This document shows positions 1 to 15,044 of a stretch of 64,000 nt of DNA, piece by piece. Under the pieces are notes generated by a model, which was not told where the DNA came from, made no database searches, and saw nothing but the letters and a program-made list of their open reading frames with translations. The position numbers were made by a program, and so were the translations under genes. This DNA comes from Vezdaea acicularis (taxonomy: Eukaryota). The stretch lies in the NCBI GenBank assembly GCA_026025075.1, contig JAPEUI010000025.1:1-64000 (forward strand). Direction: 5' to 3'. Numbering within the stretch: position 1 is the stretch's first letter; each line of letters begins with the position of its first letter.

Positions 1-1
1 G

Positions 2-301
2 CCTCGGACCGCTGCGGCTCGGGCCCGGTCGGTTACGGCCAGGGTTCCAGCTGCCAGGGCCGTAGCCAGGGCCATTGCCCAGGCCGCCAGGCCTCCGGCT
101 ACCAGAACTGCGGCCAGGACAGCCGTGAGGTCTTTGGCTGCCGGGGCTGGAGCCTCAGCCCGCCAGGGTGGGTTCCAGCCCCTGAATGAGCCCCCTGTGC
201 TGATGCTTGCCAGGGAGGTCCGTAGCTTGGCTGCCGAGATGCGGCAAAATGCGGACATGATGGAGCAGAGGATGGATGATCTGGTGGCTATGTTGGAGTA
301 G
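2..301 (+). CDS. 3' end of an ORF of unknown function (Ala/Arg-rich, then a helical tail), antisense to and convergent with pol; 5'-truncated by the window edge
   Basis: Frame 2 is open from base 2 to TAG at 299-301: PRTAAARARSVTARVPAARAVARAIAQAARPP...LAREVRSLAAEMRQNADMMEQRMDDLVAMLE*. It is not in the ORF track because its start is off-window. Confidence 0.55.
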   Translation, partial: PRTAAARARSVTARVPAARAVARAIAQAARPPATRTAARTAVRSLAAGAGASARQGGFQPLNEPPVLMLAREVRSLAAEMRQNADMMEQRMDDLVAMLE

Positions 302-540
302 TTGACGGATGGGTGAATTGACGGATGGATGATAGGCAGTTTTACGTCCGTCAGGGCCTTGCGGACGGTTTTTAGCCTGGACATAACAAGTAGATAGTCA
401 ATAATGAATGTTTTTTGCGTTTTATGGTATTTACAAATGAAATAAGTGCTTGTCGGATGACTCAAGTGTTTGACGGATGTTCCAGCGTCCGTCAGTAGAA
501 AGTATGGTCCGTCAGGTGGGACGGCCTGCCCGTCAATGTA

Positions 541-3500
541 TTATAGCAGTTGCCACAACTGCGGTTCTATTGGACTGTCTTCCTGCAGTCCTTCTTCTTC
601 CGGTAGAGCTTCAAATTGGTCTAACGGAGCTGCCACCGCGTGATTTGGATTGTTTTCACTACCGTAAATCCGTTTACGGCCTGGCCCCTTGGGCATCCGC
701 CATCCGCGAGTTACTCTTCCTTCAACTCGAGCCTGTTTTAGCCGATCACCACCTACAAGGAGCTCTAACTTCTTCTTCTGAGGAGTCTCTAGCTCGTATG
801 TATTCAATGGCATAGCTCGACGGACTCGGTAGGGTCCAAACCATTTACCTTGCCACTTCAGCTGATTCTCCGCCCGTACCAGTACATAGTCATCCGGTTT
901 GTACTGGATAGGGGTAATAGCTGCGTCCCATGCTTGCTTGTTCTTTAAGGCACGTTCTTCTGTGTTTCGTAAAGCTTCCATACGGAGTGTTTCAAATAAC
1001 GGAAGCTTGTCCTCCCGTACATTGTCCGTCAGTAGAGTTATCCCATTCTCGTCTATTGGTAATCTAGGTTGGCGTCCGTAAAGCATATAGAATGGTGAAA
1101 AACGGGTAGTACTATGCGTACGGATACGTGCCGCAAACAATGCTTGATCCAGATACCGGTCCCAATGAGAACGTGGCCGGTTGAGCAGGTACTTTGTCAG
1201 CATGTTACCTAACGTTCCGTTAAGACTTTCAACTGCTCCGTTTGTCCGTGGGTGATAAGGAGTTGTTCCCCTATGCTTGACATTTAGTTTAGACAAGAAT
1301 TGACTCATTGCCGGAGCCCATAGGTTCCGTCCTTGGTCCGTCACAATCTCCTTTGGAGATCCGTAATGCATATAGAGTTTGTCATGAATGAACTCAGCTA
1401 GGGCTTCTGCTGTAGCATCCGGCACTGCTTTTGCTACTGGCCAACGGGTTGCATAGTCAACTGCTGTAATGATCCAGCGGTTGCCGGACGGTGTTTTAGG
1501 GAGTCTGCCAATGAGATCTAATCCCCAACGGTCAAACGGTTCAATCCGTCCACTCCATTGATGTGACGGATGCTGAACATCAGTGTGCAACCCCTGACGG
1601 GACCGTCCTGCTATTTGACAGTCCGTACAGTGCCGTACATAATGCCTTATATCTTTGCGCATTGTTGGCCACCATCCCCGTGCACTAACTAGGTTTAGCA
1701 ATGTCAACTCATTGCTGTGACCATAGTCCTTATGCAGACGGTCCAATAGATCAGCTCTTGCCCATAGGGGTAAGTAGTCAATCCAGTCCGACTCTGGTGA
1801 ATCTCTGTGACAAAGAGTTTCCATAGCTATTGTAAACTCATGTGCTCTAGAACGGAGCATATGATCAATGTTCTTGTCACCTGATAGCTTGCCGGACTCT
1901 AGATAGTCCGTCATATAGTCCGTCCATTCCAAAACATTAAGTTCAATGTTATGCAAGTAGTCAGGACGTCTTGATAGTGCATCCGGCACCGTCATTAGCT
2001 TTCCGGATTTGTGGATTATCTTTAGATTGTACTCCTCAAACTCTTCTATCCACCGGCCTAGACGTTTGGAAGGCTTACGGGTTGTCTTCATGTACTGTAA
2101 CCCTTCATGATCTGTCCGTACAATAGTTGTATGTCCGTTCTCAATGTAACAACGCCAAGCACGTAAAGCTTGCTTGATTGCCAATAGCTCCTGTTCATGT
2201 GTTGGATAACGGCTTTCTGCCGGATTGAACTTACGGCTTTCAAAAGCAACCGGATGTTCCCGTCCGTCAGCCAAGTTTGTCTGCAACAATGTAGCTCCGC
2301 ATGCATAGTCTGATGCATCCGTTTCAATGATAAAAGCTCTTTTAACATCCGGTTGTTGCAATACTGGCGCGACGGTGAGGCATTCCTTTAGTTGACGGAA
2401 ACTCATCTGGCATTTGGCATTCCATACTATAGGCTGATGTTTATGTCCGCGAGTTGCTTCCGGCAGCTTAAGCAGCTCATGCATTGGTGCTGCAATGCGT
2501 GCAAACTCCTTAATAAACCTCCGATAGTATGAGCATAAGCCTACAAATTGACGGACATGATGAACTGTCCTAGGAGTTGGCCAATCTTTGATGGCTGCTA
2601 GCTTATGCGGATCCATACGGACTACGCCAGCTCCGACAATGTGTCCGCAAAAGTCCACTTCCGTTTGAAAGAAGGAGCACTTGTCTGGCCGTGCAAACAG
2701 GTTGTTTTCTAACAAGATCTGCAATACAATCTTGAGATGTTCCATATGCCCCTTTTCATCTTGACTATAGATGAGGATGTCATCTAGATAGACAACCACA
2801 AATTTGTCTAGACATGACCGTAAAATGTCATTCATAAGCGTCTGAAAGGTTGCCGGAGCATTGGTTAATCCAAACGGTAGTACACGGAACTCAAACTTGC
2901 CAATACGGGTATTGAAGGCTGTCTTTGGTATATCAGCATCCGCCACACGGATTTGCCAGTAGCCTGACAGTAGATCAACCTTTGAAAACACTTTAGCGGA
3001 CCCTATTTGATCCAAACAATCTTGTATCTTTGGTAACGGATAGCCGTTCTTGACGGTCACATTGTTTAATGCCCGGTAATCAACACACATCCGCCATGAA
3101 TCATCTTTCTTCTTGACAAAGAGTACTGGAGAACCCCAAGGTGAATGAGATGGACGGATAAGATCCCGTTCTTCTAGGTAACGGATCTGTCGGGCCTGTT
3201 CCTCTAACTGTTGTGGAGTCAGAGTATAGGCACTCCTATTGATAGGACATGCATCACCCGTATCAATGTGATGATCCACATAACGCTTTGGCCCTACCCC
3301 TGTAGGTAGTTCAGTACAGAATACTTTCATTAACGGTCCCAACTCTTCCTTCAATGACTCAATGTTCTTGCCGGACTTGTCCGTCAGCTTGTCGGATGTG
3401 TCTCCGTCTATCAACATGTATAGAACTCCTTGCCCCTTATGTTGTAACGTCCGTCTGACGTTCCGCCATCCGCTAGCTGGTATATGATTATACTCTAATG

Positions 3501-4146
3501 TTAACGGATGTGCTAATGAGTCATAAAGAGCATGCTCATAGCTGTCCTGCTGAATAATGAGTCCGCAAGCTTTGTAGTCAATAGTTGGTTGATATTGGCG
3601 GAAGAAGTCCATGCCTAGGATGATATCATATTGCGCCAGATCAATGACAATAAATGTAGCTTTATCTGTAAAGGTTTGGATAGTAACTGTGCAGTTTACG
3701 GTCCCGTAAATCTGCAATTGGCTGCTGTCCGGCAGCCTAACCCCTTTATGCCCCTTTAAAGGCATAATCTTCAGTCCGGCAGCATCACTTGTGCTCCGTC
3801 TGATATACCGTCTTGACGCTCCTGTATCTGCTAGTATTCTTATGGTATGTCCGTTCACATTGCCGTTAAATACTAACAGATCAGCGTCTGCTCTGTCTCT
3901 TATGCTTAGGAGTTGATCAAGCTCCTCTATTGTCTCCCCATGGGTCTTTCTATTTTGTTCTTCAATCTCCCGTTGTCTGGCAGAATCGGACACCGCCAGA
4001 GGCCTGCCGCAAGCTCCGGAGATTTCTATCCTTCCGTCAACTTCCTTCTCTAAGTTGCGGGTACTCTCTGTAGATATGGCCTGTAGAGAAGGCGCCATAC
4101 TTGACTTAGATAAGAGCGCCAACTTATCTAAGTCCTGTAGTTTTTT
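541..4146 (-). CDS. pol: Pol polyprotein (aspartic protease, reverse transcriptase, RNase H, integrase with GPY/F module, no chromodomain), reached by -1 frameshift from gag
   Basis: Protease [35 protein letters not shown]; RNase H ETDASD; integrase H-x4-H...CTDC, DLIG/TDQG/NGAVE; WFGPY. The frame is open upstream to the slippery site at 4140-4146. Confidence 0.96.
4091..4146 (-). promoter_or_regulatory. -1 programmed ribosomal frameshift signal: A AAA AAC heptamer, 5-nt spacer, 12-bp stem and predicted H-type pseudoknot
   Basis: Minus strand reads CC-A AAA AAC-TACAG-GACTTAGATAAG-TTGGCGCT-CTTATCTAAGTC-AAGTAT-GGCGCC. A -1 shift joins gag to pol. Confidence 0.9.
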
Positions 4147-5105
4147 GGCCCTTGTGGCCTAGAGTTAGTCCGTTCACCAACTCTTCCTGTCGGACAGTTC
4201 CGAGCAATATGTCCTGGCTTATTGCACATAAAGCACAACCCCTTTCGTCGTTGGTCCGTCTTCATAGAAGGGCGTACTGGACCTGTCATCATTGACAGAT
4301 CCATAGGTTCCGGACCATAATATGGTGTTGGCGGACCAAAACCAGGACTGTCGGATCTTCTTGGTTGCTTCTGATATCGGTTATTGGGTTGACGGGGCTG
4401 AAACGTCTGAACGTTAATGCCTTCAGCTGCGTCCGCCAGCTGTATAGCTGCTGACAGTGTCACTGGTTGGGCACGTTGCACATCTATTCTTGTACGAGGC
4501 TGCAGTCCTTGTACAAAACGTGATACAGCAACTGGTTCAGATATGTTGGTATGAACCACTGACCATAACCTAGTGAAGGTTTCAATATATTCCCGTAAGC
4601 TCCGTGAGCGTGTACTAGCTTGCGTTATAGTGAAGAACTGCTCAAGCATCTTGTTGTTGCTATTGACGTCTTCAAAACGGGCTTTGAATGTCTCCTTAAA
4701 CTCAATCCAGTTATCTGACGGACTTTGAAACTGATTGCCAGCTATGGTCCGGTACCAGAACTGAGCATTGTCCGTAAGATATTGTGCTGCATAGATGACT
4801 TTTAGCTTAGAGTCTATCTGTGCTAGCAGGAGATACCGTTCCATCTTAAAGAGCCAGTTGTTGGCTCCGTCAGTATCCCTTTTGGCTCCGTCAAACTTTT
4901 CAGGGGCCTGCAACTTGGGTTTGTTGCCTGATGCATTGAGAAGCTCAATGACAGTGGCCGTATCCAGTGTATTTCCGTTGTTTGAATTCATATTAGGCGT
5001 TGACGGAGTGTCAATGGGTGGCTCTGGTGTTGACGGAGTACTGAAAGCTCTTCCACCAAAGCCAAACACGTTAGGGATGCCAAGATTACCGTCCGACGAT
5101 GCCAT
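4128..5105 (-). CDS. gag: Gag (retrotransposon capsid plus CCHC zinc knuckle)
   Basis: 325 aa with PEKFDG..., AQFWY, [16 protein letters not shown] and [14 protein letters not shown]; lies directly upstream of pol. Confidence 0.95.
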
Positions 5106-5211
5106 TTGAGTACGTTGATGGCTACAACGGGGCGTTCGCTACTATGTCTAGAGGATCTGATCGTATTTGATGTGTTTATAGGGGTTTGTGGTCCTAAAAC
5201 TCAAATAGGGG

Positions 5212-5222
5212 TGTTGCTACCA
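5212..5222 (-). promoter_or_regulatory. Primer binding site, initiator tRNA-Met type
   Basis: TGGTAGCAACA begins 1 nt after the LTR end (...CTACA-T-TGGTAGC). TGGTAGC is complementary to the GCUACCA 3' end of fungal tRNA-iMet, as in Ty1/Ty3. Confidence 0.7.
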
Positions 5223-5223
5223 A

Positions 5224-5635
5224 TGTAGTTGCGAAGCCGCTGAGCTCGCGGTTACGGGGGCTCGCCTCTATAGGCGAGCCTGACTAAGCGGTACGTACAC
5301 GGTTGCTAACTTTTTCGGTAAAAAGCTTGCAATTGAGTTTCGCCGCCGTGCCGCGCGCACGATCGGGCAAACCAAAACGAACGAACAACAAAGGCCATTT
5401 TTGCGCGGAAGCAGACAGATGAGAGATAAACCGACGAGGGGGGGGGGCATGGGGAGTTTTCTGCCTGATGAGATGGGAGAGGGGGACCCGCGTTTCAGAG
5501 ATGGGATTTTGTTTTTGAATTTGAGGGATGGCGGCGTAAAAATGTAATTGTGAGCGGAGACGAAAAAAATGTGAAAACACATGTGAAGAAGGACTAATCC
5601 TCTTCACGAAGCGCACGGAATCACGAAATGTCACA
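5224..5635 (-). repeat. Putative 5' LTR (~412 bp)
   Basis: Minus strand TGTGACA...ACTACA gives TG..CA termini, directly followed by the PBS. The outer end could be 5635 or 5637. The partner LTR is not in the window. Confidence 0.65.
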
Positions 5636-5855
5636 CATTCAAGAAGTTAAACGCGGGCGAGGCGATTGAGGCGGCGGCTAGAAATAGGAAGTTGTCTCTC
5701 TTCAAGCCAGCCAACTAATTACAAAGTACGATAGAGACTCTCAAAAAGAACAAAAAAGGCCAGCAGGGGGCATCGGTATACAGCCGCACATGATCCAAAA
5801 AACACATGAACGATGCATGCGGCGTAAGCGTCTGACCTAAAAGTCCCCAACGACT

Positions 5856-8601
5856 TTATTTATTGGCCGCGATTTCGACGGGCGCCGCTGGCTCTCCTGC
5901 AGCCGGCTTAAGGGTATCACTCCTCTGTTCGACATTAAGAATGGCGCTCTCCAAGGCGCTGGTGAGATCGATATGGAAAAGCGGGCGGTTGAGGCCGTGG
6001 ACGACGGCGAGCTTGGTGCCCTGCTTGTAAGCTCCGCTGTGGGAGAGACGTTTGTCCAAGTCGCTGGAGCTCGAGTCGTCGGATCGTGGGGCAATGCCAT
6101 CGCTACCGTGCTCGAGATCCCGGGTGCGCTGTCGCTGGTTGTTCTTCTCATTGTCACGCTGTTCGGCCGCGCTAGCTGCGGAGTCGAAGCCGCCAATCTC
6201 GGCGACGCTGAAGATGGGCTTCCAGCGATGGATTCCTGCGTCTGCCGGAGTGGGGTATCCAAATCCAGCACTGATCAGGGCACGCTTCGTCCAGCGGTTG
6301 TTGATGCAAGCGATATGCCAGTCCACCTTCTCGGGAGATGCATATCGATCAAGCTGATTACGAACATCGATCAAATTCTGAACGGACGTGATGTCGACAT
6401 TGTTGACGGACGAAAAGTCAAGAATGATCGCTTTGAGCGTCGGGAGGTCATCACGAACTTCTGCCACACGTCCTCGTCTCGGGCCGGGGTCATTCCAGGG
6501 GCGATCCTGAACTCAATGTCAGCACACATGATTGCACAACCAAGTTTGTGATGGAGGAATTGGAGAACTTACCCCTAGCCGTGGGTATGAATTGGCGTTA
6601 GTCCGTCGGGTGTACTTAAAGATGTGATGGGTCAAGTAATCAAAGTAGTGACTCGCATTCGGATAATTGAACCCCTCGGAGAATCTATAGATGAATACTC
6701 CAGGATAAGGCGAGTCGATGTGGATCTCTGGGTTGGAGCCGTCGTCATGGTCGATCGGCAGGAAGATGCTCCTTGTCTTTCCGGACCCTTTGTCGAAGGG
6801 AGATTGTCCCTTTGAATCGAAGCCGCCGTCACCGCCAAGGTTGGTATCGGCCGCGATGGAACGGACCTTGACTTTACCGAGGAAGCGACCCTGGGCCTTG
6901 AAGAGGCGGAAGCCGAGCACGGCTGCTGATACGGCGATGGTCACGTAGATGCCATTCTCGATGCTGGAGAAAATGGTGACGAACACACCGGCGAAGAAGA
7001 TGAACACCTCGATCGGTGAGACCCTCCAGAACTGGTAGACGGTGTTGGGTGGCGTGATCAGATCACCGACGGCATGAATGATGACGGCGGAAAGAGATGA
7101 GCTCGGAATGTAGAAGAAGACCGCCGGGAGAGCATAGATGGCGAGGAGGACGACTACCGCCGTGATGACACCGGCGAAGGGTGTCCGCACGCCAGCCTTC
7201 GATTTGATGGCTGTCCGCGAGAAGGATCCGGTGGCGGGATACGCTCCCAGGAAAGGACCGAGGAGGTTGGTGACACCAATGGCAACCAGCTCCTGGGATG
7301 GGTTAATCTGGTAATTATTGACACGGCCAAAGGACTTTGAGATGGCAATGTGCTCGATGAGGAGGACAATGACCGAGACGGGTAGTTGACTGGCAAAAGA
7401 TTTGACAATCGTCTTGTTGACCGTGGGCACTCTGGCGTGCTTGAAACCTGCCCATCACGTTAGTCATTCGTTTTTAAGGAGATTGGTCTTTTTAAACTGG
7501 GAAATAACACACCTCTGGGGACGGTGCCGAGAATCTTGAACTTGGGCTTCTTGCGGTGGTGACGATTGGCCAGGTAGCTGATCAGAGTGTACAGCAAGAT
7601 GACGAAAGCCGTGCGGAGCGTCGAGATGAAGAAGAAAGTCTTTTGACGACTTGGCTTCTTCTTCGACGCAAAGACGCAGGCCGATCGAATGAGATAGAGC
7701 ATCGCCAGTGCGGTCAGGCCCATCGCGGCATCGAGTTGCGTGCGACCGAGATGCTGCAAGATGTGGATGACGACCTTGTAGGTACTATCACGCGTGGAAA
7801 ACCCGGTGATGCCCATCAACGTCGGCACTTGAGACACGGCGATGTTGATCGCGGAGCCCGTCATGAAAGCGGAGATGGCCGTCAGGGAGATCAGATCGAC
7901 CAGCCACCCGAGCCGGACCAGTCCCAGGAAGCAAATGATGCCGCCGGCGACGATAGCTAGAGAGGAAGCGACTTGATCCAGGACAAGCTTTGGGTGAGTC
8001 TTGTGCACTTTAATCAGAATGTTTCCGACGATAGTGGACATGACTGCGACGGGCTATGGAGGTGTCAGTGTGAATTTCCAGGTCTGTCACTTGGGCAATA
8101 CTCACGCCAATGGTGATATCCTTGGAAGTTGCGAAAAACCAGTAGATGAGCACCCCCATGAAGGAGGTGTAGAGACCAAATTCAGGGGGCAGATCAGCCA
8201 AAAGAGCGTAAGCCATGCCCTGAGGCACGACAACGGCTCCAACCGTGATGCCTTTAGATCCGTTAGCTTGACTGGAGAGCTTTCTAGGTCTCACGAAAGG
8301 GCTACTTACCGGCGACGAGATCTCCCGCGAGCCAGATGAGGTTGTAGCGACCGATCCAGTGCGTGAAGGGGAACAGACTGCGGCCATACAGGATGAGATC
8401 ATGTCCGGAAGGGAGCGTCTCACGAATCCATTCGGCGGAGGTTGGTTCCTCCTCGACGTAGGTGTCCGCGGACGCTACAGAGAAGACCGACTCGCCTCGG
8501 GTCAAAGCGTCAGGGCTGGAAACCTCATTGCGATAGTTCAGCTTGATCCCCAAGACCTTGGCGAGCCCGTGGCCGAGCTTGGTCGCCGGGCTTTGAGCCA
8601 T
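5856..8601 (-). CDS. SulP/SLC26 sulfate permease with STAS domain (cys-14/sB/SUL-like), 5 exons
   Basis: [77 protein letters not shown]. Introns 8309-8252, 8105-8054, 7512-7448, 6572-6507. Confidence 0.95.
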
Positions 8602-11037
8602 GGCTGCCGCTCAACTTCGCCCCGCCGTCAGCTGAGTTGAAGCTAGGACACACAGACCGTTCGTTCACCGCGACGAGGAGGATGAAGCAATGGGACCTTT
8701 TGCGGGGGGGGGAAGTACCTAGTAGATGTATGCTCCGCCGCTTCCTTTCCAATGGAGCAGTGAATAGGCAAGAAAAAGCCGCTGATTGGCCGCCTCGTCG
8801 TGTCAGCAAGAGCTCCGAGCTCTTCAGAGACTTGATGAGGCAGTTGATGCACGCGACACGTTTTGTGATCGCGGAGGAGAGAAGGGGGTAAGGAACAGAG
8901 ACCCTGTCCCAGACGTTCGGCGCGAGCACGAGATATATGTCTTGTCGGGGGCGAGGGAGGATTGGACAAGGGTGTCAACCCTACTTCCCGCTAAGGAGCT
9001 TGGGAGGGAAGGGAGGGGGGGGGCTGGTCGAGTCGTTGACAGCTGGTCACGTCTGCCCCGATGGCGTCGCCCACGTTCGGCTTCGCGATGGGGCCGGATT
9101 AGGCAAGTGCGGACGACTGACTTCATGACGGCGGCGAGCAGTGGGAATGACGAGGCGTCGTGGTGGAATATCACAATATCAAATCGGGGGTGATGCGAAA
9201 GGCGAGCGCGCGAGGGAAGCTCGGTCTAGAGCTCACGACGGGGGCAAGGTACCCACGTACCGGACGGGGGTCCCTTTAGCATCTCGGCCAATGGCACCAG
9301 CGGGAGGCCCGTGAGGAGCGTGAAGACGAGATCCCGAGTGCCCGCGAGGCCCAAAGGGGGGACGGCGATGGGGACGGCGAGGGGAATGGGGGATGGGGGA
9401 TGGAGGATGGGGGATGGGATGGGCGATGATGAGGATGTCGGGGAATATGGCGTGCTTCTCGCTAACGGGCAACGCGGGTGCGTCGAAGGATGGCAAAGAC
9501 GTACCAGCACCAGCAGCTCCCGGACGAGGCCCCATGTCGGAGCCCTTCGCGCGCCGTCCGATGTCGAAGCTCGAGGTAGCGTCGCTCGCCAAGCTGCCCC
9601 GCGGACTGCGGGTGGGTCGATGCCCTCATCGCCAAGCAGCTCGCGCCGCGGTGCAGTCCCAGCTTGGCGGTGCTTGCTCTTGCTTGTGCTGTTGCTTGCT
9701 GTTGCTTGCGGATGCTTGCTGTTGCTTGGTAGCTCGCGAGGGTGTGGGTGTGGGGGGCGCCAGTGGAGCGGGACCCGCTTACCGCGCCGTGTCGGTTGTC
9801 CGCGGCTGCAGGAAGGGGGGTGGACGGTGGAGGGGGAGGGAAGGGAGGTTGGGACGTGAGCACCAATGGCACGCGCTGCCCATGTCGTGATACTCAGAAG
9901 ACGATCGATGGGGCGGCACAGACGCAGCCCTCTGCCTCTCCACAAATCAGTTCCACCGAAAATAAAGCTCTCGCCCGCCTGCCAGACGTGGGGGAGGGAG
10001 GGAGGACGTTGGACCACGCGAGCCGAGGCGCGTCGAGAGCTTTGCGTGAGAGGCAAACGAGCACGAGAGCGAGGAGCAAGAGAGCGAGAGCGCGAGCGGC
10101 CATGTCCAATGAACGGAGGAACTGACTCGAAGTCCCAGTGCCCGATCGGCACGCTGCATCTCTACCCAGCAGCCCGCTGCCCCGGAGCGCGGGGCTTGGC
10201 ACTGAGGTGATCGGATTAGGGCATGGCAACTCGCGGAAGGGCGTGGGGAGGAGAGGGGGAAGAAGCCGAGGGCCCATTAGGGCTTGGCTCTTCTCGTCCT
10301 GGAGTAACAAGCTCGAAAACGATCAGATCGCGTGATTCTCAAGCCGATGTCTGTCATTCCCTTTCCCCAAAGCGTGTATCATCGTCGTACTCGAGGAATG
10401 TCGAGTGTCGAATGTCGAATGTCGAAAGTCGCTAGAAGTATCACGCACACACCCGCCCACCACCCTCGGAATATTGTATTCGTAACTAAGTTAACCCCAA
10501 ACGCCGAAAAGAGCTCACGACGTCCCGATACACACTCCCAGTCCATCGTTCTCGTCATTAGCTCCACCCTTCCACCCTCGCCCCCCCCAAAAAAAGACGA
10601 TCTTAGTCAAGGGCTACATGAGCGAGACATGGCGTGATTCTTCTCCGCGGGCGACCTGTCAGATATCCCAAAGAAACATTACTCTATCCCTCTAGCCCAA
10701 CTCTCTCTGTCACGAGCGAGTCACCACGACATGACGTGCTTGACTGAAAGAGAACGCCTCTAATTTACTGCCGCGCTTTTGCCAATAGTTCCTCAGGGCT
10801 TTAGCCCGCCCCCTATCCCTATCTCTCCTTTTCTGCTCGAAAGGGCTCGATCACGAAGTGACCTGAAAGAGCTTGAGAGGAATGGGGCGTGGTTTGGCTT
10901 CAGAAAAAGGGAGATAGATGTTGTGATACTACCAATATACAGTACTGGGGGCCATCGGATGGTATCAAGGTGAAGTGCCTAAACGAGTCCATACTCCATT
11001 CCGCGCCCACGAGCGCAGCGAGCGAGCGAGCGAGCCC

Positions 11038-12354
11038 CTATCCCGCTCCGAATCCATCCCCCTCCTCCTCTGCCCCGACCAACCTCCCCAACCAGCCTTC
11101 CCTCCCCTCCCAGACCATCCCGTCGACACTCCCGCAACAGCCTGGACCGACATACGTAGCATTACACGCACAAACACTCGCCTCCCCTCTCTTGCGGCGT
11201 CCAGCGCTCGCCGCAACAACCGCAATACCACAAACACCTGCCTCCCAGAGATCCCTCCCGACGCGATTGAGCAGACACCGACAGCCGTCTCCGACGCACT
11301 GAAGGCCATTGCAAGGCCCACCGCACGTGCCATCCACGCCCCTATTATCCGCCGCGAACCCCTGACCAAACGACGCGAGTCCACCGGCTCGACTCCGTGG
11401 CCGACCAAACGCCGCTCTCTCACTCTTCCGCCTCCGCCCCGTCTCCGCCGCCACGAGCCGATTCCTACTCTTCCGCCTCGGAGCGCGTCTGGTCCCCTCC
11501 TCTGCTCCTCCGGCCAGCACGGGCGCGGCCGTCGCTTGCGTCCCCAAGGCCGCGACGGGCTGGATGGTCGTCGTGTAGGAGACGCCGCGGTCGGGGAAGG
11601 CGAAGAGACCGATGAGGCGGCCGTCGCGGAGTTTATACGCATGGACGTCCTCGGCCGTGAAGCTGGCGACGACATCCCCGGCTTTGACGCCGCCCGTGAG
11701 CTCGTCGTCTTGGTCCGCGTCGGCGGCGTGCGCGGGCGGGATGCGGCACCGGCAGAGGAACTCGCAGCTCATCGCCAGGGAAGGCTGTTGATGGAGCACG
11801 GGGTCCGCGAGGGGCGGGGGTTGGCAGAAGACGGTGGATTGTACGCCGGGCCAGCCGCAGCCGCAGCCCAGGTTGCGGCTCTCGTAGCCTGCAGTGAATG
11901 TCCATTGGATCTTGCCGTTGTAAGCGCAGAGGGCGCGTAGGTCGGTATAGCCGGCTCGAGGGCGTGAGGGAGGGAAGGCGGCAGGGGAGGGGAGCAGGTC
12001 GAGGCATTCGATGTCGTAGGAGGTGTCGGCGGGGTAGTAGTATGGGGCCATGGGGGGTTGGAGGGGCGGCCCCAGCTGCGCGAGGTTGGAAAGGCCTTGG
12101 AGCGCCCAGGAGCCGACGGTCGAAAGATCGCTGGCATCTGAGTCGGTCTGCAGGGAAAAGGGGTCGTAAGGGTCCAAGGGGGAGATGTGGACATCGTCAA
12201 GGTCTTCGAGGTCGGCGAAGGCGTCGAAGGGAGAGAATGGCGTGGGGTCGGGGGCGATGGCGGGGAGGATAAGGAGGGCGATCAGGAGAGCGAGTGGGTA
12301 TGGGCGTACCAGCACAAGCTCATGGCGATGCTGGGTCGAGAGCCAGAGCATCAT
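11038..12354 (-). CDS. Hypothetical secreted cysteine-rich protein (~438 aa, no intron needed)
   Basis: Long GC-rich ORF. ATG 12354 is followed by a hydrophobic stretch YPLALLIALLILPAIA. Cys clusters LCA..GCGC..FC..CEFLCRC, CGGPC..C..CRC..C and CACNATYV..CC..G.VWE. Confidence 0.7.
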   Translation of the reverse strand: MMLWLSTQHRHELVLVRPYPLALLIALLILPAIAPDPTPFSPFDAFADLEDLDDVHISPLDPYDPFSLQTDSDASDLSTVGSWALQGLSNLAQLGPPLQPPMAPYYYPADTSYDIECLDLLPSPAAFPPSRPRAGYTDLRALCAYNGKIQWTFTAGYESRNLGCGCGWPGVQSTVFCQPPPLADPVLHQQPSLAMSCEFLCRCRIPPAHAADADQDDELTGGVKAGDVVASFTAEDVHAYKLRDGRLIGLFAFPDRGVSYTTTIQPVAALGTQATAAPVLAGGAEEGTRRAPRRKSRNRLVAAETGRRRKSERAAFGRPRSRAGGLASFGQGFAADNRGVDGTCGGPCNGLQCVGDGCRCLLNRVGRDLWEAGVCGIAVVAASAGRRKRGEASVCACNATYVGPGCCGSVDGMVWEGREGWLGRLVGAEEEGDGFGAG

Positions 12355-13365
12355 ATAACAACCCAATGGTGGGTATAGCGGACATGGCCAGGAAAGGAGA
12401 ACACTCCGCTCCCGATGGGATAAAGAGATACCGTGAGTGTATAAACAGACTTTCGCCCACAACGCTGTGCCACATGGCTTTGCGTCAGCTAGGAGAGAAG
12501 CTCGATGGCAATGAGAGAGATGTCAGCATGGTCGCATCGGGCCCATGTCAGCAGTAGCGGTAGAGCGCGGTGAAGATATACACACACTCACACGCATAAC
12601 CACAGAGACTTTCCCAGCCTTACGGTTATCCCCTCTTCCCGTCAATGTCTCCATCGGTGCAACGTCCGCACACTTCCGGACAATAAAGCGGAGAAAGCTC
12701 GCGAACAAGGTTTCAAGCCTTAGGCGATCCATCTGAAAAGCTGCAGGCACAGCTGCAAGGGCACGGACAGTCTTAGAGGGGAAGGTGCAGACCACGCCCA
12801 TCAGGATCCGCTATCTAACACAAAGTAGTGAGTGGAGGCCGGAGACTTTGTTCCTTCGTAGGAGGGCAGAATGAGATGAGAATGCACCATCGGCATCCTC
12901 CGGCCTGACCTCGTAGTATCTATATTCGTCCGGGGGGTTTGTCACAACTCTCAGCTTGTGAAGCCCATAACATTTCCGTTGTGGGGTATGAGGGATATGA
13001 TTATGTCAAAGCTTGCCGAGTTTCGCATGGGGTCGGATTCAGCGATCCTAAAAGTTCACTCGCTAGGAGTCTCGAGATAATGCTCGAGATAAGAAAGTAC
13101 ACCGGAAAGATATGCTCAACAGAAATCATACATGCAGAGACATGGCCAGATAGTGAAAGAAGTAGAAGGCCAAGTTCGCTTACTCATGAAAAGATTCGCT
13201 CCCACAAATATATGGTCATCGTGCATCGTCAAATTTCGTCAATGTTCGCGATGGGGTTGGTGCGGTCCGTAAAAGTGCCTCATGCCGAAAAGCTTAATGC
13301 CGCTAGGAACAATGCTCAAACTCTTTGCTTGTAAAATGGGCCGAATACCTGTCAGATTGCATCAC

Positions 13366-15044
13366 TCATTTCGCATGAAGCAAAAGCTCTTCATACACGC
13401 TGTCTGGTATCCTTGGCGCTAAGCTTAGTGTGAGCTTCTTGATATCAGTTGCCCGTAACGGAGGAAATGATCTGAGGACTTTCACTGGACTATTTCTTGG
13501 TCAGAGGAGGAGAACGTAAACGACCGCGGGCTCGCTTGCCTTGGACTTCCTAAGATTTCATCCCGAATGAGGATAAGCTGAGCGACGATACACAGGATGT
13601 TGAGATGAGGTCCCCAGGCGAAGAGAAAGTCCCATAGGTGCAACACCTCCGGAAGAGGGGGCGTGCACGCACACAACGTCAGGACCGACGGAAAGGCGTA
13701 GAGCTCAGCATGCATCCCTTTCGAAGACAGAAAGGCAGATAATTTAGGGTCGACAATAGCAAGTATCTTATCAACAAGCTGGATAAACGGAGCGTTAGAC
13801 ACCAATCACGAAGAATCAATATGCGAAAGGATTCTTACAGCTAGACCGCGATGTACGCCGTCCATGGCACCCCTCACGTAAGCTGGACATTGCTGAGTCA
13901 AAAATCGGTGAAATGCAACGAACGCTTCCGCTTCGCTCCGAGCCGCGTACAGGAAAGGGGCAGCTAAGACATTCATGCCCTGGACGTACGATCCCGGCTC
14001 CGCGACACCTGGCTCAGATCCTTCAGTCGTGGCCGTGCGGTCGCCTTTGAATGCACGGGGCTCTGCGTTGGAGCTTAGGGCTGAAGGTCTCGATGCGCTG
14101 ATTATTAGCTTCTCTTCTCTCTCGTCGTGCAGTTTCCAAGATATCGCATTAAGAAGCCTGATCAGGCTAGCCTCACTCACGCGGCGTCGAAAGAGCGGGT
14201 CTGTGGCCAGTGTTCGAAAAGTGTCGTTACGAATTTTGGAATAGGCAGATGAGGGCCCGCGATGTATCAAAGCCAGGTACTCGTCGGTTGCAAGGGGTGG
14301 AGCGTTGAGGAAGATCAGCCAGATGTATATCCGAAGTTTTGACTGTGACAGATAGATATTAGCCCTGTTCTATCACGAGCATTTCCATAGTCCACTGGTG
14401 AGACCACGCAGATCCATACAATCCTGTCAACCCCAGTGGCGCCAAATACTCCTAAGGGAGCTTCCAATCCAATGGCCAGTAGAACACTTCAAACTCACCA
14501 TTCCATCCCCATCACTCCCTACCCCGTCCATGAGCACCGAAATCCTCATCTCCTCGAGGCCCTTCAGCACGTCCCCATTCGGCGGTCCTTCTCGGAGGAA
14601 CCCCTCCAAGCTTGCCCCCTTCCCCTGGCCCCCCATCACTACCCCCCTCTTAGCGCCCATCTGCCTGCGCCGCTCCGAAGCCGTGGGCATGCCCGTTCCT
14701 TGCGCCATGACCGCAGCATCACTGTTCGATCGCGAGCGTCCATGTCGTGAGTTTGTGCCGGGCAAGATATTCTCGAGGTTGTTGTGGCGTAGCGGTTCTC
14801 TGCCTCTTTCTCTGTCTTTCTCTCGATGATACGAGGAGTCTTTATGTATCGAGCTAGAAACAGTCCTGAGTTGCTGTCGCTGCTGTGCAATGAGCGAGGG
14901 TGCGTTGGCGGCTGTCGAGAGTGAGTGAGCTGATTGGAATTTTCGGATCGTACGTTGCACCCGGGGTGAAGGGGGGTTGAGGAGGGAGGTATGGCCCGAT
15001 GAGGCGGGATTGGCAAACTGGGATCTTTTGGGGGAGGTTGCCAT
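13366..15044 (-). CDS. bub2: Bub2/Cdc16 TBC-domain GAP (spindle position checkpoint / SIN)
   Basis: KIRNDTFRTLATDPLF, YVQGMNVLAAPFLY, AELYAFPSVLTLCACTPPLPEVLHLWDFLFAWGPHLNIL, last exon VLRSFPPL...LLHAK*. Multi-exon; last intron is GC-AG (13539-13490). Confidence 0.93.

Follow-up and report, generated by a model that had tools for sequence, protein, structure and literature searches.

The left 5.3 kb of the 64,000-nucleotide (64-kb) stretch of DNA analysed here, referred to as the window, is occupied by a minus-strand Ty3/Gypsy element, a young, multi-copy retrotransposon with very short LTRs (76 bp) whose host is probably a fungus. Past the stop codon of its pol gene, a plus-strand frame converges on pol from the left edge of the window. 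By comparison with a complete relative (locus L005), in which a spliced gene for a DUF3716 protein is found on the antisense strand past pol, there is about an even chance that this frame is the last-exon tail, that is, the C-terminal end, of a comparable element-borne antisense gene. Contigs that bridge the region to pol, the CpG context, the three-base periodicity of 161-301 and the architecture of L005 speak for this reading. Against it stand the length of the frame, a codon model, searches that returned no homologue or Pfam family, the lack of sequence similarity to L005, a first part (codons 1-53) unmatched in other copies, Met codons that come late and a further relative, L019. The window alone does not prove an antisense gene, and the analogy is drawn from one complete relative. 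The lineage does genuinely have an extra region that separates pol from the 3' LTR.

Structure and borders of the element

The features of the element are collected in Table 1. gag and pol overlap by 31 nt, and their domain content and order, as assigned by Pfam, are those of Ty3/Gypsy elements (Metaviridae). The 5' LTR and the primer-binding site expected at the ends of such elements are present in the window, the 3' LTR and the polypurine tract are not found in it, and all four are present in L005.

Table 1. Coordinates of the features of the element and of the antisense gene of its relative L005
Feature	Position	Strand	Remarks
Plus frame; candidate for the C-terminal tail (last exon) of an accessory antisense gene	2-301	+	99 codons; runs off the left edge of the window; TAG at 299-301
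G+C-rich, Ala/Arg-coding low-complexity part of the plus frame (codons 1-53 = 2-160)	1-160	+	Unmatched by the contigs listed
Shared part of the plus frame, encoding the predicted C-terminal amphipathic helix	161-301	+	X1 record 1, periodicity, AlphaFold2
Non-coding spacer between the convergent stops	302-540	.	240 bp, no periodicity, conserved
pol	541-4158	-	Pfam: protease, RT, RNase H, integrase; frame intact; TAA stop at 543-541
pol Pfam domains (residues)			RVP_2 93-198; RVT_1 348-508; RT_RNaseH 604-710; Integrase_H2C2 801-850; rve 874-970
gag	4128-5105 (open frame 4128-5138)	-	Pfam: Ty3_capsid, Retrotrans_gag, zf-CCHC; ATG at 5105-5103; intact
Primer-binding site TGGTAGCAACACC	5210-5222	-	One base past the LTR; first 12 bases identical in L005
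5' LTR	5224-5299	-	76 bp, TGTACG...ACTACA (TG...CA); from contig flank breaks and alignment with L005
L005 antisense gene, exons			58, 182, 166 and 389 nt
L005 antisense gene, introns			88, 44 and 49 nt; starts GTACGT, GTAAGT, GTAAGT; ends CAG, TAG, TAG

Contigs of four public runs (X1, X4, X6 and X8) were aligned on positions 1-8000 of the window at an identity of at least 85%. They leave the window at 5299 and at 5222-5227 into flanks that differ from run to run, and one short X8 contig (record 28) matches 5224-5299 only, which is the behaviour of a terminal repeat and sets the LTR at 5224-5299. Both ends of the 113-bp LTR of L005 align with 5299-5224, so that the 336 bp of 5300-5635 are flanking DNA and not LTR. 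The preliminary description had drawn an LTR of 412 bp at 5224-5635, an assignment that the contig flanks and the L005 alignment show to be wrong, and the borders of the element are hereby corrected for annotation. Contigs cover the element over about 161-5299, to a summed depth several-fold that of the adjoining DNA, a figure that does not equal copy number, and a blastn search of the 64-kb window found no second copy. One X4 contig skips 59 bases at 2841-2901, in the RT region of pol, a deletion variant in that sample which would shift the frame. Adjoining the 5' LTR, a gene on the minus strand (5856-7454) has long open frames, one of which resembles STAS weakly and below threshold (E 0.0067, 16.6 bits; cut-off 22), so that the gene may be sulfate-permease-like; its frame ends about 560 bp from the LTR.

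Past the pol stop, the same contigs tie most of the remaining DNA to the element. X4 record 9 bridges the stop (267-1830). X8 record 24 spans 296-561, where it differs at 6 positions and has 4 gaps (about 97% alike, most other X8 pieces being less than 90% alike), and X1 record 1 aligns without gaps over 161-362, differing at 5 positions. In the X1, X4 and X8 runs the flanks beyond 5299 and before 5222-5227 differ, so these contigs join 161-540 to pol in copies with other LTR flanks, and 161-540 is therefore element DNA present in other insertions. The preliminary description had reported neither a polypurine tract nor an LTR copy after the pol stop, and for 1-540 this was borne out: no stretch of 9 or more consecutive purines or pyrimidines occurs in 1-545, a repeat search of 1-8000 found no direct repeat joining 1-540 with 5224-5635 or 5224-5299, and 5100-5900 matches only itself when compared with the window by blastn.

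A complete relative with a spliced antisense gene

A profile search of genome contigs with the pol clade returned 16 loci, the nearest of which is L005, with a pol 51% identical to that of the window (residues 83-1189). L005 is a complete, young insertion, with two 113-bp LTRs that are 100% identical, the same primer-binding site and a polypurine run, AGGAGGGGGAGAG. Its pol stop is separated from the 3' LTR by 1,551 bp, and on the antisense strand of this region a gene starts at an ATG (14752) situated 154 bp from the 3' LTR. Once spliced, the gene has 264 codons, as against 31 unspliced, and all phases fit. Its exon 3 corresponds to Pfam DUF3716 (PF12511; E 6.7e-7, 29.6 bits against a cut-off of 22), located upstream of the tail, and its last exon, rich in G+C, encodes a tail composed of Arg (17%), Pro, Gly, Ala and Ser, with a stop 423 bp from that of pol. 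The window frame is likewise placed and composed, 240 bp from the pol stop in a block of 72% G+C, with 27% Ala and 15% Arg, and shows the C-terminal 99 codons only. The 3' region of the window has no similarity to the spacer or the exons of L005, including by tblastn with the L005 exons; this is expected for low-complexity tails at 51% identity in pol, and the parallel is therefore one of architecture only.

The model of the L005 gene is, on sequence grounds, taken to be real, because a degenerate paralogue located 1.5 Mb off in the same record (L023, 9382-9926) still has exon 1 at 58 nt, an unchanged intron phase and the junction of exons 2 and 3, the protein identity being 49-52%. The paralogue has in-frame stops, a mutated 5' splice site and an AT-rich context, with no gag or pol within 9 kb, and the L005 gene is probably either a descendant or the source of a family with members outside the element as well. 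Beside the paralogue, a long array of a motif of about 25-30 bp occupies L023 10400-10900, and the whole looks like a mutated repeat region. The record that holds L005 (OZ255840.1, 5043502-5066825) is labelled as a MAG of Lapillicoccus (Actinobacteria), and carries a Ty3/Gypsy element, introns of the spliceosomal type and a 2259-codon ORF of the Mus7/MMS22 family; the L005 stretch has the look of eukaryotic (fungal) DNA, as may the 6.65-Mb record in its entirety.

L019 and L008 do not extend the parallel. The pol of L019 is 46% identical, and a large minus-strand ORF, which we take to be a host gene, starts about 700 bp past its pol stop, so that this locus appears to have no room for a comparable antisense gene; listing of the ORFs past pol gave no comparable gene in L019 or in L008. 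PF12511 was found in one of the five genomes behind the loci of the relatives, and the second match there is not near a pol. A metagenome scan for more copies yielded 4 distant loci only (24-31% identity), an exact 24-mer from the spacer was absent from the genome contigs and viral contigs searched, and a pol-clade profile scan of viral contigs gave nothing.

If the comparison with L005 holds, positions 1-540 of the window would be the end nearest pol of a long stretch that reaches to the 3' LTR, in which an antisense gene would converge on pol across a conserved, non-coding spacer. The visible peptide would be made of a disordered Arg/Ala-rich tail and then a C-terminal amphipathic helix. The start of the gene, its introns and a folded domain (the Cys-rich DUF3716 in L005) would be located some 0.7-1 kb to the left of the window, and the promoter beside or in the 3' LTR. 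Such a gene would not lose its introns on retrotransposition, since splicing does not act on them in the sense genomic RNA. We infer from this comparison that the frame may be translated and may continue into an L005-like gene. As to function, a DNA- or RNA-binding regulator would be a reasonable guess, because of the basic tail and of the Cys-rich domain of L005.

Coding evidence for the plus-strand frame

The frame was confirmed in the ORF list as the preliminary description had given it, with 99 codons that end at 301, 240 bp from the pol stop. The G+C content is 72% over bases 1-200 and 67% over 1-301, and the net charge of the peptide changes from +11 (residues 1-60) to -4 (residues 61-99). 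AlphaFold2, run without an alignment, predicts a helix at residues 65-98, with a block-mean pLDDT above 90 from residue 71 and low confidence before the helix; in the model, residues 55-64, which link the basic part to the helix, take no helical form, and the predicted helix says nothing on whether the peptide is made. The peptide had been described as a basic Ala/Arg repeat followed by an amphipathic helix. Its composition and the model agree with the basic Ala/Arg part and with the helix, but Tandem Repeats Finder reports nothing in 1-301, and the first part is of low complexity instead of being a repeat. Met codons occur in the last 32 codons only. Pfam assigns no family to 2-298, neither DUF3716 nor bZIP among others, and the peptide found no homologue among 255 candidates (proteins of 54-174 aa), no match among 1.84 billion representatives searched with no length limit, and no usable match in the atlas.

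The length of the frame alone is no evidence beyond chance, because 49% of 2000 dinucleotide-preserving shuffles of this 67% G+C sequence (1-301) have at least one fully open frame; the same is true of 94% of the shuffles of 161-301, and four of the six frames are open over about 190-287. A possible, if less likely, explanation is thus that the frame is open by chance and that 1-540 is an untranslated 3' internal region in which neither strand codes, low-complexity G+C-rich DNA being followed there by a conserved spacer that acts in cis. The several frames open at once, the protein searches without homologues, the failure to find a tandem repeat or a Pfam family and the lack of conservation of 1-160 between copies are what this explanation would lead one to expect. 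Codon log-odds scores, for which the long ORFs of the window served as training set, do not clearly favour a coding plus frame either: true in-frame chunks score 0.145 (sd 0.136), and over 161-301 the plus frame, at -0.035, is not preferred to two minus frames, at 0.12.

What chance does not readily produce is the three-base periodicity of 161-301. In the plus frame, GC1/GC2/GC3 are 0.68/0.34/0.77 (chi-square 19.8, p 5e-5), a periodicity beyond chance, equalled in strength by 2.2% of 416 windows of the same length elsewhere in the 64 kb and by none of 25 windows of pol, and its order (GC1 > GC2 < GC3) agrees with a reading in the plus frame. Of 195 chunks cut from long ORFs in other parts of the window and treated as host sequence, 3.6% have a GC1-GC2 of at least +0.34 and 0.5% one of at most -0.34, which favours the plus frame over the antisense frame that shares its wobble positions by about 7:1. 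In L005, moreover, the equivalent G+C-rich block demonstrably codes antisense. The earlier claim of an antisense extra ORF inside the element therefore stands in part: 161-540 is joined to pol in other copies, the frame lies after pol on the opposite strand and the periodicity of 161-301 fits it, but the length of the ORF carries no weight, neither a homologue nor a Pfam domain was found, and 1-160 is not matched in the contigs listed.

Origin of the first 160 bases

Positions 1-160 are covered by none of the listed contigs from the four runs at an identity of at least 85%. The depth recorded for the bin 1-267 is explained in X1 by record 1 (161-362), and in X6 (0.49) it comes from an unlisted piece. 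The X1 contig diverges exactly at 161 and runs 92 nt further to the left with unlike sequence. The 30 nt shown of this loose end have no significant alignment with 1-160 (98 of 500 shuffles score as well), and for that reason the proposal that these letters are a homologue of 131-160 with wobble-biased changes was dropped.

These observations would suit the reading in which about 1-160, or even the whole of 1-301, is not ancestral to the element but stems from a rearrangement particular to this copy, from a fragment that was nested or transduced, or from host DNA fused to a copy truncated at its 3' end, so that the 99-codon frame would be a chimera. The GC3 of the frame (0.70-0.77) is like that of host genes (0.65-0.67) and unlike that of gag-pol (0.44), and the window ends inside the region, with neither an LTR nor a polypurine tract in view. 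We nevertheless regard such an origin as unlikely, since the CpG context of 1-160 follows the element. The preliminary description had stated that the frame shares the CpG signature of the element, and the counts uphold it: CpGs fall in CCG/CGG in 18 of 18 cases in 1-301 (13 of 13 within 1-160), in 150 of 202 (74%) in gag-pol, and in 1702 of 4050 (42%) in the rest of the window (58.7 kb), which argues for a long membership of 1-301 in the element. The 30 nt shown of the X1 continuation are also equally G+C-rich, open and Ala-rich in the same plus frame, as would fit a fast-evolving low-complexity tail, and L005 has a G+C-rich block at this position as well.

The end of pol and the conserved spacer

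The stop codon of pol marks its true end. A 99% identical copy of the protein (P0001, 1172 of 1185 residues) ends at the same residue, and in the six nearest pol relatives the protein closes no more than about 10 residues away from it, so that pol truly stops at 541. Beyond the TAA, the minus-strand frame in phase with pol (1-540) is open for a further 180 codons. This frame and the plus frame share their third (wobble) positions, which makes one a likely shadow of the other, and the 180-codon frame is read as a shadow of the plus frame plus chance because 302-540 shows no three-base periodicity (p 0.2); this also counts against a sense-strand read-through of the pol stop. The least probable reading of all, that the sense strand codes here, by read-through past the TAA at 543-541 or as a sense ORF3 with a hydrophobic segment, draws on the phase of this frame and on the fact that a fully open frame of any kind appears in only 2.35% of shuffles of 1-540, but it is opposed by the ends of P0001 and of the six relatives, by a spacer that has no periodicity and is nonetheless more conserved than the synonymous sites of pol, by the absence of a homologue for the 180 residues (among proteins of 99-315 aa) and of a match to the tails of 120 pol relatives, by a GC1 that falls 0.34 below GC2 in the minus frame of 161-301 (seen in 0.5% of host ORF chunks), by its being the expected shadow frame, and by the pol frame of L005, which closes 33 codons past its stop.

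The spacer contains six copies of TCCGTCA/TGACGGA, in both orientations, at 303, 319, 347, 471, 488 and 508. No other part is as well conserved: X1 shows at most one difference in 430-570, as against 16 in 571-1063, 15 of which fall at third positions of pol codons. The predicted RNA fold of its minus strand (z -2.66) is better than that of all 200 shuffles. The spacer is probably a cis-acting element. Rfam gave one sub-threshold match only, inside pol. As a further observation, the interval 296-561 is more conserved than the adjoining pol, both between copies and in a more distant X8 relative.

Relation to known antisense genes of retroelements

Antisense extra ORFs are a known kind of gene, of which that of the window would be a new fungal member. 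The antisense proteins of retroviruses include HBZ of HTLV-1 and ASP of HIV-1. Retroviral antisense genes, on the strand opposite gag-pol and driven from the side of the 3' LTR, are a comparison drawn in PMC11963269, and the gene proposed here would share both traits. Unlike in HBZ, the helix predicted in the window is parted from the basic part by a Pro-rich linker; the basic region of a bZIP is continuous with its leucine zipper, residues 55-64 are here non-helical, and there is no Pfam match, so that the window peptide does not count as a bZIP.

In plants, antisense extra ORFs between pol and the 3' LTR occur in Tat/Retand, Grande and RIRE2 elements, as described in two accounts (Vicient and Casacuberta 2020, PMC7264820; Vicient 2025, PMC11963269). 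They are well catalogued there. The element studied here would share with them a long region from pol to the 3' LTR with an antisense frame and a protein without database relatives; for the plant proteins a regulatory role has been proposed. The plant regions span 2.9-6.6 kb and mostly encode a TRP28 domain (PMC11963269). Here, in contrast, the host is probably a fungus, the LTRs are of 76-113 bp, the region is of about 1.5 kb in L005, the domain of L005 is DUF3716 and Pfam finds no family in the window frame.

Among fungi, the Boty-like Ty3/Gypsy element of Botrytis cinerea has an antisense extra gene, brtn (Zhao et al. 2011, Virology 417:248, as cited in PMC8365987, PMC7264820 and PMC4227169). 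The citing papers describe it as an additional antisense gene in a fungal Ty3/Gypsy element; Boty has a chromodomain, whereas Pfam finds none in the pol of the window. DUF3716 (PF12511) is also carried by a class II transposon of Zymoseptoria tritici, in the genes REP9-1 and REP9-2 (PMC8232023). These are, like the antisense gene of L005, DUF3716 accessory genes of a fungal mobile element, so that the accessory domain of L005 is found on a DNA transposon as well; REP9, however, belongs to a DNA transposon and not to an LTR element, and the visible window frame, which covers the C-terminal 99 codons only, has no DUF3716 by Pfam or tblastn. In the literature searched, brtn of Boty was the only antisense gene of a fungal LTR element, and a DUF3716 antisense gene in an LTR element was not reported. 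Should the antisense reading be true, a fungal Ty3/Gypsy lineage with LTRs of 76-113 bp would carry an intron-containing accessory gene, offering a tractable fungal system for asking what role antisense genes of retroelements play.

Short motifs and CpG skew within the element

Within the window, the 7-mer TCCGKCA (TCCGTCA/TCCGGCA, on either strand) occurs 49 times against 19.4 expected. As many as 31 of the 49 copies lie inside the element (303-5037), at about 6.5 per kb against 0.3 per kb outside it, on both strands and in coding and non-coding parts alike, with none in 1-302 or in the LTR. The CpGs of the element (1-5299) are also skewed in context: the share in ACGG/CCGT is 43%, as opposed to 11% for the remainder of the window (5300-64000), and the share next to T or A (the TCG/CGA classes) is 14%, as opposed to 48%. 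This skew may be the footprint of context-specific mutation or methylation, or the result of selection on TCCGKCA. The L005 element has no such skew (39% of CpGs in CCG/CGG, against 40%).

TGACGGA is not enriched in L005. A different CpG-containing 8-mer, TCGTACAA, is found there 8 times against 0.45 expected, with all copies in the element (10212-14633) and on both strands. It is a highly speculative proposal, and one that we hold to be very improbable, that a zinc-binding DUF3716 protein, encoded by a spliced antisense gene of this lineage, would recognise such an element-specific CpG-containing motif (TCCGKCA here, TCGTACAA in L005). With copies of the motif scattered along both of its own strands, the element could in that case mark itself or regulate itself, as in copy-number control or in protection from silencing. 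Of the L005 copies, two are located in the antisense gene, in introns 1 and 3.
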